Shown here piece by piece: positions 1,658 through 7,910 of a stretch of DNA of 24,000 bases. The stretch is from Candidatus Doudnabacteria bacterium (GTDB lineage Bacteria > Patescibacteriota > Dojkabacteria > J137 > JAEUSD01): contig JAEUSD010000011.1 of assembly GCA_016788825.1 (NCBI GenBank), positions 12,322 to 36,321 on the forward strand. The letters are read 5' to 3'. The notes beneath the pieces were generated by a model. That model did not search any database and was not told the DNA's origin. It worked only from the letters and a program-made list of their open reading frames with translations. Each line of letters starts with the position of its first letter. Position 1 is the stretch's first letter. A program made the translations under genes and the position numbers.

Positions 1658-3472
1658 ATGGATAGATTAGAAGAAGGGCTTGCTAAGGTTCAATCTCTGG
1701 AACTGGCAAGAGCCTGGAAAAAGTATAGAGTAACTCCCCGTCTTATCGTTATGTCAGCAGCGTTAATGACTTTTGTACTTGCCCAGAATATAACAGAACC
1801 GATGAGGCATCCTCGGCAACGCGGAAGAGGTGTTAAAGTGGAAATACCTGAAAAACCCTTACTAAAAGATCTTACTGCACATAGTGATTACACTGCTGAG
1901 CCATTCTCGTTAGACCCTACTGGTCGAGTTATTGTAAATCCGGCCTATCCGGGCCAATTGGCAAGATATTACTCATTGATAACCAGTGTAAACCTTGCTG
2001 CGCTTGACGAGCAAAGTATAGAGGAAGTTCTAAGGTTATTCCTTAGCGTAATAAATGGAGATCAAGAACTTCCTCCTGCGGATGAGTTTTTTACACCTGA
2101 AGCTGAGATGCAGATAACTGTGCCCAACGTGATTAGGTCGATGAGACCCTTTTTGGCAGAATTGCCAAGTGAACAGTTTTTTAAATTGTACCAAGCGATT
2201 AACACATGGTTAGGAGGTAATCCTCCCACTTACGATATCAATCGCGAATCGAATCTGGCTTTAGTAGAGTTTCTGTTCCGAAAACTAGCCTATGGTATGA
2301 ATAATATTGACCCGCAAGCAGATACTTCATACACACTGATTCCTGAGTTGCCTTTGACTGGAGATAAGGTAAACGAATTTAAGGCGGGATTGATTGCTTA
2401 TCGTGACTCGCAGCCTGCTGAAAAAGTAGAAATTTATCGAATCTGGCTGCTGAAAGTCATGCTGGAAAGTGATTTGGGGGCTTACGAGCTTGGACAGATC
2501 TTAAGTACAATGAATTCGGTTTTTGGTTCTATTAATCTTGATGCATATCCCTTCGATTTGAATACGGGAACTATCTCGGTGCCTTCTCCGTTACCCGAAA
2601 GGTTAAACACAGATAAGATCCTAACAGAACTTGCAAACCAGATAGGTTTGAGTACTAGTGCGATAGACCAGGAGATCGGGCTAGGGCTTTTGTTTGGCTC
2701 ACTAGGTCAGATTGATGAATTAGGACTGGCTGAGCCATTTCCAGGTGCTGATGGACAGTTCTTTGCTAAATATCCACTGATGGGGGTACGTGATACAGAT
2801 CCTAGTAGTGAGGTAATTAGGAATTATGTTGGGGTTGTTGTTCATGAGTTTGCTCACACACGCTACAGCGCACTTAGGTTCAAGACCTGGTCTGAGGTAG
2901 CAGGCGTACAAATGACCTATGAACAAGCATTTTGGTATTACATTTTCAGGGTGTATGCTGGGTATGAGGAAGTAGATGCTGGTTTCTACGAACTTGTGAA
3001 GACTACAATTGATTCTAGGGGCAAGACTGACAAGTATGGTAGCTATATGGGGGTAATAGGGAGGTATTTCCATGATGTAGGGTTAGATATCGAATCTGTT
3101 CCCATAGAAGATCCAAAATTATTTGCAGATTTCTGGACTACCAGCGGGCTTTCGGCTGGTGTTGTGACAACACAAATTGAAGGAGCGGATATTGGTCCTT
3201 TTGATGAAGGTCATTCGCGCATAATGCAGGGAAGTTACCTCTTTATCCGTGAGCTGCCAGCGGATTTCGCAAAGTTTGCTGCACAGGTCTATGATTCTGA
3301 GAACAGGCTAATGCTTAGTGACTTAGACGAGTTTATAATTGGATTTGCGGATTTTATAACTATGCTCATGATTATGATGAGTGTGGTTAGTCCTGAAATA
3401 CTTGATCTTACCTTAGCTTTGGGAAAAAAGCGATCTACACGGCGAGTTCCGACAGAAGTTTATAAAAGCTAA
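1658..3472 (+). CDS. Hypothetical membrane-anchored protein with an HExxH (HEFAH) zinc-metalloprotease-like motif
   Basis: This is a 604-aa uninterrupted ORF. It has a hydrophobic N-terminal segment (LIVMSAALMTFVLAQNI), the motif VVVHEFAHTRY around residue 395, and a hydrophobic C-terminal segment (FIIGFADFITMLMIMMSVV). I recognise no other family signature. Confidence 0.6.
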   Translation: MDRLEEGLAKVQSLELARAWKKYRVTPRLIVMSAALMTFVLAQNITEPMRHPRQRGRGVKVEIPEKPLLKDLTAHSDYTAEPFSLDPTGRVIVNPAYPGQLARYYSLITSVNLAALDEQSIEEVLRLFLSVINGDQELPPADEFFTPEAEMQITVPNVIRSMRPFLAELPSEQFFKLYQAINTWLGGNPPTYDINRESNLALVEFLFRKLAYGMNNIDPQADTSYTLIPELPLTGDKVNEFKAGLIAYRDSQPAEKVEIYRIWLLKVMLESDLGAYELGQILSTMNSVFGSINLDAYPFDLNTGTISVPSPLPERLNTDKILTELANQIGLSTSAIDQEIGLGLLFGSLGQIDELGLAEPFPGADGQFFAKYPLMGVRDTDPSSEVIRNYVGVVVHEFAHTRYSALRFKTWSEVAGVQMTYEQAFWYYIFRVYAGYEEVDAGFYELVKTTIDSRGKTDKYGSYMGVIGRYFHDVGLDIESVPIEDPKLFADFWTTSGLSAGVVTTQIEGADIGPFDEGHSRIMQGSYLFIRELPADFAKFAAQVYDSENRLMLSDLDEFIIGFADFITMLMIMMSVVSPEILDLTLALGKKRSTRRVPTEVYKS

Positions 3473-4170: not shown

Positions 4171-4259
4171 AGTTGAGATTTAAGTGACTGAATTCTAGCG
4201 CACGAGAGCGAGGTTTCAAGTGAAGAGGGTTTCGGCAAAAGTGATTAATATATTCGTGA

Positions 4260-4265
4260 TAATAT
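4260..4265 (+). promoter_or_regulatory. -10 box TAATAT (extended TGa) 5 nt upstream of the ATG at 4271
   Basis: The plus strand reads cgTGaTAATATccagcATG. This supports the 4271 start rather than the GTG at 4220. Confidence 0.35.
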
Positions 4266-4270
4266 CCAGC

Positions 4271-4699
4271 ATGGATAATCTTCTACAAAGAAATGGAATA
4301 CTCTGGGGTCAAATTGAAACTGAAGGATATAGAATTGAGCAATTTTTAGTGGGCAATGTCTATACGACTCAGCCCTCAGTTTACAGAGATGAACTTGAAG
4401 CTATACTTGAACTTTATAGGGGACGAAAAGTTAGGGTAGCGCCTCCCACGGCATTTATTCTTGAAGGGCAAGATAAAGTGGTCATATTTGATGGAAATAA
4501 AAGAGCACTAGCAATGTTAAAGTTAGTTCAAGAAGAGGGGTATGTTAGTACTGACAAAGGACTTTACCCTTCACATGAGGCCTTTCAAATGGACTGTGGC
4601 ATTTATTTAAACCATATTCCATTAGCAATCTTAAAACCTCACGGACTTCCTGGGTATAGCCTTCACCACATCACTAAAACAGAAATTATTGAGAGGTAG
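4271..4699 (+). CDS. Hypothetical protein with a possible degenerate ParB/Srx-fold motif
   Basis: The 142-aa product contains DKVVIFDGNKRALAMLKLVQEEG, which resembles the hhhhDGxHRxxA core of ParB-like nuclease/sulfiredoxin-fold domains. The region is AT-rich and the gene converges on parB. Confidence 0.5.
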   Translation: MDNLLQRNGILWGQIETEGYRIEQFLVGNVYTTQPSVYRDELEAILELYRGRKVRVAPPTAFILEGQDKVVIFDGNKRALAMLKLVQEEGYVSTDKGLYPSHEAFQMDCGIYLNHIPLAILKPHGLPGYSLHHITKTEIIER

Positions 4700-4708
4700 T
4701 GACTATTC

Positions 4709-5560
4709 TTATCTCAAAAGCCCATAAATATTATCCAGCTCCTCATCGCTTGTGAACGGGATTACGATCTTGCCGCCTTTTTGAGAGCGACTGAGGGTGA
4801 CGGATTTGCCGAACTTGGCGCGGAGGGAGTTTTCGATCTCACTAGTTTTTTCGTCTAGGATGCGAAGGTCGCGCCTTACTTGGCGTTTGTGGCCTTTGTT
4901 GAGACGTCGGACTAGCTCTTCGACAGCGCGAACAGATAGGTTATCTCTGAGGATGATTTTATACGTGGCGATCATTGTTTCGGTCGAGTCTAGCCCAAGT
5001 AAGGCGCGGGCATGACCTTCGGTAATCTTTTCTTCCAGTAACCCGCGCTTGATCTCCTCTGGCAACGTCAAAAGGCGGATTTTATTTGCTACCGCCGGGC
5101 GGCTGAGGCCTAGTTTCTTGGCAATAGTGTCGTGAGTTTGTTGAAATATATTCGCTAATTGATCAAACGCAAGGGCTTCTTCAAGTGGATTCAAGTCGGC
5201 GCGCTGGACATTTTCAACAATTGCCAGTTCAAGCATCTCCTGAGCAGAGGCTTCCTTGACTACAACTGGCACAGTTTCAAGTCCGGCAAGTTTGGAGGCA
5301 CGCCAGCGGCGCTCTCCGGCGATCAATTCGTACTTGTTATCTCCCTTTTTGGTAACGATCAATGGTTCAATCACGCCGTGCTCACGGATAGAGTCAGCCA
5401 ATTCAACTAGCTGTTCAGGCTTCATCTCTACACGTGGTTGATAAGGGTTGGCCACAATGTGGTCTATTGGAAGAGTAGGGATGTATCCGGATTGGACACC
5501 GGCTACGGTTTCCTCGCTTATTAATGCTGATAGTCCTTTGCCTAATCCTTTCTTAGTCAT
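4709..5560 (-). CDS. parB: Chromosome partitioning protein ParB (Spo0J family)
   Basis: It has the ParB box LIAGERRWRASKLAG, an HTH region (TIAKKLGLSRPAVANKIRLL) and the typical N-terminus KGLGKGLSALI. Confidence 0.92.
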   Translation of the reverse strand: MTKKGLGKGLSALISEETVAGVQSGYIPTLPIDHIVANPYQPRVEMKPEQLVELADSIREHGVIEPLIVTKKGDNKYELIAGERRWRASKLAGLETVPVVVKEASAQEMLELAIVENVQRADLNPLEEALAFDQLANIFQQTHDTIAKKLGLSRPAVANKIRLLTLPEEIKRGLLEEKITEGHARALLGLDSTETMIATYKIILRDNLSVRAVEELVRRLNKGHKRQVRRDLRILDEKTSEIENSLRAKFGKSVTLSRSQKGGKIVIPFTSDEELDNIYGLLR

Positions 5561-5630
5561 AGTTTCACGGATTTAAGATAGGTAATGATCCCAGATTTTG
5601 GGTGGGAATTCAAGGGTAGAGCTTTTGCTG

Positions 5631-6425
5631 TTAATCCGAGTTATGTAAATACAGCCCGGGATTCTTAATGAGGTCAATAACTAGACTGTATAGGTCGGAG
5701 AGAACGGGAAAAGGAAGATCTTTTAGTACGGGTAACAGAGTTACTAGGATTAACTGATATCTTTCTAGGTTGCCTGTGGGATTCATTTTGATTTGTTCAA
5801 TTACTTTATCTACAACTGTGTAGAAAGCATTGAACCTCCTTGGAATTTGTCTGTAGAAGTTAGTAATACTATCTTTGTTTGTGTTTAAGTATACCGATAG
5901 TTTCATCAAACTTGTGTGGAATTCCGTTTGATCCATTATTAAAAGATCGTAGGTTTTTCTAAGCAGCAAACTATCTAAGTTGGGTACTTCCCTCAGGTAA
6001 TCAGGGTTGCCGTTCCTTAGCTTTTCTATTTTTTTGTCTACCTCTAGGATCAAAGGGTCCTGATACTCCTCTCTGTCGATTACCTCTAAAGCATCATTGT
6101 ATATTCTAAGGCCGAAGATTATGGACATATCTGTGACAAGGCTCACTAGATTATTAGTCCTGGTCTGTCCTTCGGCATCCAAGTAAGTTACCCTAATTTT
6201 TTTGGGTAACAGCAGTGGTGCGAGGTCAAGTACATTGGAGGCGTATCCGGCGTCATACATTCTCAGGAAAAGCCCAAAGAATCTTAAAGCCTTCTCATCT
6301 TCTAGGGCATTCAGTACTCCCTCTACCTCTGATTGCAAGCTCTCGCTTAATTCTTGTTGAAGGTCTAACTGGCTCAGGAATTCGCCCAGGTTTGGTTTAT
6401 TGAAACCTTCAGGTCCGGAACTCAT
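5631..6425 (-). CDS. Hypothetical protein (264 aa) encoded between parA and parB
   Basis: This is a clean ORF on the same strand as the flanking par genes, with 31-nt and 70-nt gaps. I see no recognisable motif. It looks predicted-helical and acidic and lacks a TM segment. It is visibly more AT-rich than parA and parB. Confidence 0.6.
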   Translation of the reverse strand: MSSGPEGFNKPNLGEFLSQLDLQQELSESLQSEVEGVLNALEDEKALRFFGLFLRMYDAGYASNVLDLAPLLLPKKIRVTYLDAEGQTRTNNLVSLVTDMSIIFGLRIYNDALEVIDREEYQDPLILEVDKKIEKLRNGNPDYLREVPNLDSLLLRKTYDLLIMDQTEFHTSLMKLSVYLNTNKDSITNFYRQIPRRFNAFYTVVDKVIEQIKMNPTGNLERYQLILVTLLPVLKDLPFPVLSDLYSLVIDLIKNPGLYLHNSD

Positions 6426-6456
6426 AAACTTATCCTAGCAGACAGTAGTGTATGTA

Positions 6457-7254
6457 TCAAGCTGTAATGAATCTCTTAATGACTTCGGTTGCGAGGGCGG
6501 AGTAGGCCTTGGCGCCGGCGGATTGGGCGTCATAATCATGGATGGAGAGTCCATGCGACGGCGCCTCGGATAACCGGATGTTCCTTGGGATCACCGCTTC
6601 AAACACTGTATCTTTGAAAAATGCGCGCACTTCGTTTGCCACGTCGCGGCTGAGGTTTGTACGGTTATCGAACATGGTGAGGATCACGCCACCGATTTCA
6701 AGCTCTGGGTTCAGTTTAGATTTGACGAGTTTAATCGTGTTCATCAATTGGCCGAGTCCTTCTAGTGCAAAATATTCGCATTGAATTGGGATCAGCATCT
6801 TGTCCGCGGCTGTAAGCGCGTTGATAGTCAAAATTCCCAATGAAGGAGGGCAGTCGATGATGATAAGCTCGTAATCCTTTTTCACTTTCGCTAAAGCAGA
6901 CTTGAGAATGTTCTCGCGAGACATCATATTTACCATTTCCACCTCAGCCCCAGACAATTCGATTCCTGCGGGTAGTACTTCCAAGTTCTCTGTCTGCGAT
7001 TTAACGATGATTTCGGCGGGCTCAGCAGAGTTTACAAGGAGGTCATAGATGGTCTTTTGGGTACTGTCCTTGCCAGTGATATCCGTTGGACCATCTTTGT
7101 GCACATTGATGCTGAGCCCGGAAGTGAGATTTGCTTGAGGATCGAGGTCAACCAAGAGTACTTTATGCCCGGCGTTGGCTAGGTAAACGCCCAAATTTAT
7201 CACAGTGGTCGTCTTGCCAACGCCACCTTTTTGGTTCATCACACTGAGTATCAT
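6457..7254 (-). CDS. parA: ParA/Soj family partition ATPase
   Basis: It has the deviant Walker A NQKGGVGKTTT, plus LLVDLDPQANLT and IIIDCPPSLG. Confidence 0.92.
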   Translation of the reverse strand: MILSVMNQKGGVGKTTTVINLGVYLANAGHKVLLVDLDPQANLTSGLSINVHKDGPTDITGKDSTQKTIYDLLVNSAEPAEIIVKSQTENLEVLPAGIELSGAEVEMVNMMSRENILKSALAKVKKDYELIIIDCPPSLGILTINALTAADKMLIPIQCEYFALEGLGQLMNTIKLVKSKLNPELEIGGVILTMFDNRTNLSRDVANEVRAFFKDTVFEAVIPRNIRLSEAPSHGLSIHDYDAQSAGAKAYSALATEVIKRFITA

Positions 7255-7910
7255 TTTTGTACACTAACAGGGCAGAGTGTTTTGGGGGCAGTGTTGTTTG
7301 AGCTTATTAAACCGAAAGTGCTGAGCGGCCAATACGTCAAAATTACTTTGCCTTGTAGCCATTCACGTTTAATTTGTCCAATCTCGTTGAACCTAGAATC
7401 TAAACTGTTGTTACGGTTATCCCCCATCAAAAAGTAGAACCCTGGATCAATAGTTACTTCTTCACCTTCTGCCAAGTAACTTCCACCATTTGTACGTCTC
7501 TCTGGAGGGAGATAGCTTTCCAGCAACCGTTCTCCATTTACGTAAACCCTCCCATCACGAATGCTTACCTTGTCTCCTCCAATGGCGATAACTCTTTTTA
7601 CAAGAGCTTTTTCTCTGTCTGGTTTCTGGAATACCACGATATCTCCTCGCTGGTAATCTAACCCCATGCTTTGGCCGAACGGGGTAGAACCTAGCCATAC
7701 GGATAATTTATTCGTGAGCAAAAGCTGAGCGTCTTCGAAGTTGGGGCACATCGAGTAGCCATCAACTTGATTTGGTGTGAGGATAAACAGATACAGAACT
7801 ATGCAGATGAATAGTGCCACTACAATTGATTGCAGCATATCTACAACTATCCCCCCGCTTCTTTTCGGCTTTGCCGGTTGTTCAAAAAAAGGATTATCAA
7901 TATTGTCCAT
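7251..7910 (-). CDS. lepB: Signal peptidase I
   Basis: It has an N-terminal TM segment, the catalytic Ser box GYSMCPNF, the Lys box KRVIAIGGDKV, and GDNRNNSLDSR. Its stop overlaps the parA start in an ATGA arrangement (7251-7254). Confidence 0.9.
   Translation of the reverse strand: MDNIDNPFFEQPAKPKRSGGIVVDMLQSIVVALFICIVLYLFILTPNQVDGYSMCPNFEDAQLLLTNKLSVWLGSTPFGQSMGLDYQRGDIVVFQKPDREKALVKRVIAIGGDKVSIRDGRVYVNGERLLESYLPPERRTNGGSYLAEGEEVTIDPGFYFLMGDNRNNSLDSRFNEIGQIKREWLQGKVILTYWPLSTFGLISSNNTAPKTLCPVSVQK

Follow-up and report, generated by a model that had tools for sequence, protein, structure and literature searches.

A strain-specific orphan gene between parA and parB in a Patescibacteria genome is probably a recently acquired passenger

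Introduction

The partition genes parA and parB usually stand next to each other, an expectation voiced in the initial annotation of this locus and borne out in about 90% of the relatives' loci that we compared. In the Patescibacteria (CPR) bacterium studied here, a 264-amino-acid (aa) open reading frame (ORF), which we call X, lies between the two genes on the same strand. This raises the question of why X is there, and the initial annotation put forward two possible answers: either a foreign gene has split the operon, or X is an uncharacterized third component of the partition module. We considered these possibilities by comparing the window (the whole 24,000-nt stretch of DNA that was analyzed) with near-identical strains and with more distant relatives, and by examining the coding potential, composition, homologues, and predicted structure of X.

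Results

Five genes follow one another on the minus strand in the order ileS (7974-10943), lepB (7251-7910), parA (6457-7254), X (5631-6425), and parB (4709-5560). The extent of X is exactly that given in the initial annotation, although the genes run along the minus strand, and the overlap and spacers that it listed also hold: lepB overlaps the start of parA by 4 nt (the same overlap is called in L032, a strain without X that is described below), 31 nt separate parA from X, and 70 nt separate X from parB. The lepB gene encodes signal peptidase I (Peptidase_S26, E = 1.6e-38; TIGR02227, E = 1e-42), and parA encodes a 265-aa Soj-type ATPase (AAA_31, E = 6e-67) with the deviant Walker A motif KGGVGKTT. 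The 283-aa ParB has the ParB_N, HTH_ParB, and ParB_C domains, with an intact ParA-binding peptide (LGKGLSALI), the CTPase motif GERRWRA, the HTH, and the C-terminal dimerization domain. A search of the window that allowed up to 3 mismatches gave no parS site. The only near-consensus parS sites in the assembly are a pair on genome contig C11, at positions 53225 (TGTTACACGTGAAAGA) and 54572 (ACTTTCACGTGAAACA), each with 2 mismatches; 1.3 kb separates them, and both are outside the window and not beside parAB. With ParA, ParB, and parS all present, ParABS needs no X to form a complete, canonical system.

We found X to be a real coding frame whose codon usage is native. Scored against a codon table built from 783 long ORFs of the genome, its in-frame codon log-likelihood is -3.997 nats per codon, at the 51st percentile of genes, whereas its other five frames score from -4.49 to -5.34 per codon, which is 0.5 to 1.3 nats worse. 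Shuffling the 874-nt segment that holds X yielded an ORF of 264 codons in 0 of 5000 cases, and the parA-X spacer (6426-6456, minus strand) carries AGGA 7 nt before the ATG of X. All of this speaks against X being a chance ORF in non-coding insert DNA, a reading that we regard as next to impossible even though conservation cannot be shown for a protein without homologues and the confidence of the predicted fold is low.

The initial annotation described X as AT-rich, and the GC content of X is lower than that of its flanks (0.404, at the 10.6th percentile of the genome's genes, versus 0.484 for parA and 0.490 for parB). However, this is not a mark of foreign origin. The GC3 of X is native (0.443, at the 45th percentile, with a genome mean of 0.447) and its codon usage sits at the genome median, so we rejected X as a compositionally foreign island. 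Its AT-rich look instead reflects both its amino acid composition, since GC2 is low (0.277) because the protein is rich in Leu, Asn, Asp, Glu, Ile, and Lys, and the unusually high GC of parA and parB, which lie at the 91st to 94th percentile of the genome's genes.

No known family could be assigned to X, in keeping with the absence of any recognizable motif reported in the initial annotation. A word-indexed search of 5.8 billion proteins matched X to itself alone, on one contig, and HMMER, run exhaustively over 1.84 billion representatives, gave one marginal match (E = 3e-4) besides X itself. This match is a 2,541-aa TPR protein whose repeat unit aligns with X residues 109-155 at 26-30% identity, and its E value is inflated because the score is summed over the target's eight repeats. 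Among Pfam families none rose above noise (the best, COX5A, reached E = 0.01 and 16 bits against a cutoff of 24 bits), and searches of NCBIfam, PHROGs, PADLOC, and PDB sequences gave no significant match. A metagenome pattern scan found no relative of X, tblastn against 50,697 phage records found no match, and tblastn against plasmids returned noise alone (E of at least 0.06). X was present in 0 of 40 related genomes, and its own genome holds neither a paralogue nor a second copy. By these searches X is a true singleton, and it adds one protein without relatives among 15 billion sequences.

The X protein has a mass of 30.4 kDa, a pI of 4.8, and a net charge of about -11, with 18% Leu and no Cys or Trp. 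It has no convincing transmembrane segment, since even the most hydrophobic stretch of 19 residues includes Lys, Asp, and three Pro. An AF2 model of full-length X consists of about 14 helices and one beta-hairpin (pLDDT 45.1), and the C-terminal 160 residues modeled alone (105-264) again gave helices (pLDDT 46.5). When this low-confidence model was compared with the PDB by Foldseek, nothing was found at E <= 0.001 and TM scores did not exceed 0.24. X is thus predicted to be a soluble, acidic, leucine-rich, and mostly alpha-helical protein. Our best guess is that it could be a helical binding scaffold, possibly TPR-like, on the basis of secondary-structure propensity and the marginal TPR-like match, with models at pLDDT 45 to 46. 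Given these possible helix-turn-helix, TPR-like units, the most plausible mode of action would be the binding of another protein. We did not assign X to the TPR repeat proteins, for which we took a significant TPR profile HMM match plus at least 3 tandem 34-residue repeats as defining: X matches no TPR model at E <= 1, has no detectable internal repeats, and offers a single TPR-like unit.

We compared the spacing of parA and parB across relatives. In 27 of 30 relatives' ParB loci, parA lies directly upstream of parB with a gap of about 40 to 220 nt (all <250 nt), and two genomes of the same family (G001 and G003) have gaps of about 44 and 47 nt. A wider set of 41 Patescibacteria-type loci, which partly overlaps the set of 30, includes 38 loci with both genes; the gap is below 250 nt in 35 of these 38, and X occurs in none. 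Three loci (L044, L048, and L074) encode a ParB without parA within the upstream flank retrieved. In G038 (L031) no parA adjoins parB, and its place is taken by a small ORF, acidic in composition, and a gene for a multi-pass membrane protein of 283 aa. Larger gaps hold other genes: G002, of the same family, has a gap of about 640 nt with an opposite-strand 146-aa ORF that bears an N-terminal membrane anchor (L003:2430-2870; no Pfam match, with a run of N in the sequence), and G034 has a gap of about 770 nt with a 187-aa class I SAM methyltransferase (Methyltransf_25, E = 2e-23; L030:889-1452, with the same gene at L038:2894-3457). The genes that fill these gaps are unrelated to X. The presence of three unrelated genes at this position (X and the inserts of G002 and G034) suggests that the spacer between parA and parB is tolerant of insertions.

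An exact look-up of ParB provided a much closer comparison, as it returned two metagenome contigs, L032 and L033 (runs SRR17651514 and SRR17651513), that carry the same 283-aa ParB at 100% identity; an exact-sequence look-up of the window's ParA returned no other contig. Both L032 and L033 have parA, then a 77-nt gap, and then parB, with no X. The ParA of the window and that of the X-less strain share 98% protein identity over the first 250 residues, and the downstream synteny of L032 is that of the window, with the same small ORF, Nudix gene, ORF of about 606 aa, glyoxalase, and amidase. Using blastn, we aligned L032 to window positions 7502-6491 at 97.1% and to 5616-718 at 95.0%. These alignments and the base-level junctions delimit a strain-specific cassette of 874 nt (5617-6490, minus strand) that replaces 58 nt of L032 and L033, with breakpoints at 6490/6491 and 5616/5617 that are the same in both strains. 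The 300 nt to its left are 99% identical to the X-less allele, and the 300 nt to its right are 98% identical. X is therefore a strain-level presence/absence polymorphism with an empty site. The reading of X as a conserved third component of ParABS fails the test that the initial annotation set for it, because relatives have a contiguous parAB and X occurs nowhere else: it is missing from all 40 relatives, with parA-parB gaps below 250 nt in the proportions given above, and from L032 and L033, in which parA adjoins an identical ParB gene.

Two further ORFs of this region, of 159 aa (4220-4699, plus strand, convergent with parB) and 604 aa (1658-3472, plus strand), are without a Pfam, PHROG, or PADLOC match, and the corresponding calls in L032 have 142 aa and 606 aa. 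Since both are conserved in L032, they are, unlike X, not strain-specific.

The cassette carries more than X. Its first part is a swapped 3' tail of parA, comprising about the 12 last codons including the stop (6457-6490, minus strand), that has 47% nucleotide identity to the X-less allele. This tail is in frame and homologous, with ATEVIKRFITA preceding the stop in the window versus ALEVAKRFLAKS in the X-less strains; the longer endings are ...ALATEVIKRFITA and ...ALALEVAKRFLAKS, respectively, again up to the stop. The parA tails of relatives are too variable to tell which of the two is ancestral. At the other end, identity between the window and the X-less strains resumes 14 nt past the X stop, at CCCTTGAATTCCC, and the parB leader of 56 nt that runs from there to the parB ATG (5561-5616, minus strand) is untouched and identical to that of L032 and L033. 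Given that the parA tail was swapped for a homologous one, we infer homologous recombination or gene conversion from a parA-bearing relative, a route read from one junction pattern, and the native GC3 of X agrees with a related donor. Alternatively, the divergent end of parA could be a variable patch with a history of its own that happens to border the insertion. With the same-family genomes as outgroups, parsimony makes the absence of X the ancestral state and its presence a gain. Thus, the split of the operon suggested by the initial annotation is real and recent, given that near-identical strains are contiguous, although the gene that split it is native in composition and the parA tail points to a related donor. 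In the X-less allele, each breakpoint has a copy of the 9-mer GCCCTTGAA (near 1013-1075 in L032 and L033), one within the parA tail and the other directly ahead of the parB leader that the alleles share; this may be a microhomology that bears on the exchange, or a coincidence.

We also looked at the wider pattern of identity between the window and L032, in which runs of 99-100% alternate with patches of 75-92% at 7152-6900, 4416-3900, 1720-1400, and 1125-975. The 4416-3900 patch covers the divergent intergenic region between the 159-aa ORF and the Nudix gene and reaches into the 5' ends of both. This mosaic pattern is what would be expected of a recombining population, and the X cassette is the sole large indel across the roughly 6 kb compared. 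Mosaic local populations, a 56-contig metagenome-style assembly, and the occurrence of X on one contig only are also what an assembly artefact would draw on, in which the contig follows a variant path that belongs to a related population living alongside and the mosaic is absent from any one cell. The junctions are nevertheless coherent, with parA in frame with its homologous tail and the parB leader intact, and the codon usage of X is that of this genome. Moreover, a relative with parA-X-parB would have to exist even if the path were mis-threaded, and we consider an artefact extremely improbable.

X might instead be cargo that a phage, plasmid, or transposable element left in the operon, for instance a moron-like gene or one for defence or anti-defence; in favour of this, it is a single-gene, strain-variable ORFan, acidic as some anti-defence proteins are and lower in GC than its neighbours. 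The borders of the cassette have no terminal inverted or direct repeats and no target duplication, and no recombinase, integrase, or transposase domain accompanies it; as extra copies are lacking too, we rejected a transposable element, an IVS-like element, or an integron-type cassette. The PHROG, PADLOC, phage, and plasmid searches described above likewise count against mobile cargo, as do GC3 and codon usage that equal the genome's, and the homologous parA tail on the cassette calls for a parA-bearing donor. We therefore rate a mobile-element origin as quite unlikely.

Since X shares the strand of the operon that encloses it, and only short spacers without a terminator-like site set it apart from its neighbours, it might also be a strain-specific modulator of ParABS. 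It could, for example, tune or hijack segregation by binding to the dimer of ParA or the clamp of ParB, and its place in the operon would ensure matched expression. The N-terminus of X offers a superficial likeness in this regard: by eye, residues 10-20 (K10..LGEFLSQL) resemble ParB residues 3-13 (K3..LGKGLSAL), with Glu replacing the central Lys. In the ParA-binding peptide of ParB, the central Lys/Arg matters for ATPase stimulation (PMC12462528). We scored X with a position-specific scoring matrix (PSSM) built from the ParB peptides of 18 relatives and obtained -1.4 bits, which ranks 26th among the 986 proteins for N-terminal matches and 127th for matches anywhere. Shuffles of X reached its score in 0.8% of cases at the N-terminus and in 8% anywhere. 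We thus rejected mimicry of the ParB peptide as indistinguishable from background, with 25 other members of the proteome matching better at the N-terminus. Together with this weak score and its ranks, the absence of X from strains with identical ParB and from all relatives, and the filling of the same gap elsewhere by unrelated genes, make a modulator unlikely.

With the parB leader intact and no terminator-like site found between lepB and parB in a sequence scan, X is probably read through with parA and parB. A promoter-like sequence, TTGATA-17-TAGGAT, TG-extended, lies at 6460-6432 (minus strand), where it overlaps the parA stop and ends 6 nt before the X ATG. Some of its bases can also be read as the AGGA Shine-Dalgarno, and promoter-like consensus matches in the scanned region were no more numerous than in shuffled sequence. 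As the site falls inside the cassette, X may have brought its own candidate promoter with it.

Discussion

We conclude that X is probably a recently acquired, strain-specific accessory passenger gene that most likely came in via recombination, and not a conserved part of the partition system. In the course of events that we envisage, a single-gene cassette of 874 nt would have entered the short parA-parB spacer of a lepB-parA-parB operon in a Patescibacteria bacterium with a genome of about 1.1 Mb, most likely by homologous recombination with DNA of a related, unsampled lineage. X would then be co-transcribed with its neighbours, and the protein would bind some other protein. The two-protein ParABS would keep working without needing X, given that X-less strains exist.

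Dispensability in the sister strains may still be compatible with a strain-specific effect of X on partition. A bolder form of this idea is that X is a population-variable, fast-evolving modulator or hijacker of segregation that engages ParA or ParB (for instance, an inhibitor without the central basic residue of the ParA-binding peptide), that such factors spread by recombination owing to their embedding in the operon, and that parA|parB is a dedicated CPR slot for them. We hold this to be very unlikely. What stays new is the singleton protein X itself, with a slim chance that its location reflects an effect on segregation, and X would be of interest only if it were shown to touch ParA or ParB.

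The attractive reading of X as a hidden third partition protein is ruled out by the empty-site comparison of near-identical strains. The same comparison provides a cleanly delimited case in which tiny-genome CPR bacteria gain single orphan genes, with recombination even rewriting the end of an essential neighbour. In addition, the three unrelated genes observed at the parA|parB junction hint that this junction repeatedly takes in unrelated inserts.

Accessory partners of ParABS include PadC/bactofilin in Myxococcus, TipN/PopZ in Caulobacter, ParJ/Scy in Streptomyces, and HubP in Vibrio, and the Sulfolobus plasmid pNOB8 has a three-gene AspA-ParB-ParA system. Like such partners, X is neither an ATPase nor a centromere-binding protein, is encoded beside parA and parB, and is predicted to be helical. 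However, the known accessory partners are conserved within their own clades, whereas X is found neither in conspecific strains nor in any relative and has no sequence similarity to any protein family. With TPR and other helical-repeat scaffolds, X shares a predicted all-alpha structure, the alignment of residues 109-155 with a TPR unit, and the weak COX5A-like helical match below the cutoff, but it differs in having one such unit, no internal repeat, and no TPR match in Pfam at E <= 1.

The closest likeness is to the strain-level accessory ORFans of CPR/Patescibacteria and other bacteria. As in those cases, X is present or absent between near-identical strains whose core flanks are conserved, and it is a single gene without homologues, of native composition, in a mosaic, recombining background. 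It differs from them in its site, which lies inside an otherwise tightly conserved parA-parB pair, and in that the event rewrote the 3' end of parA and came from an unsampled donor. Taken as a whole, X acts like ordinary cargo of the flexible genome, a finding that is real but ordinary.
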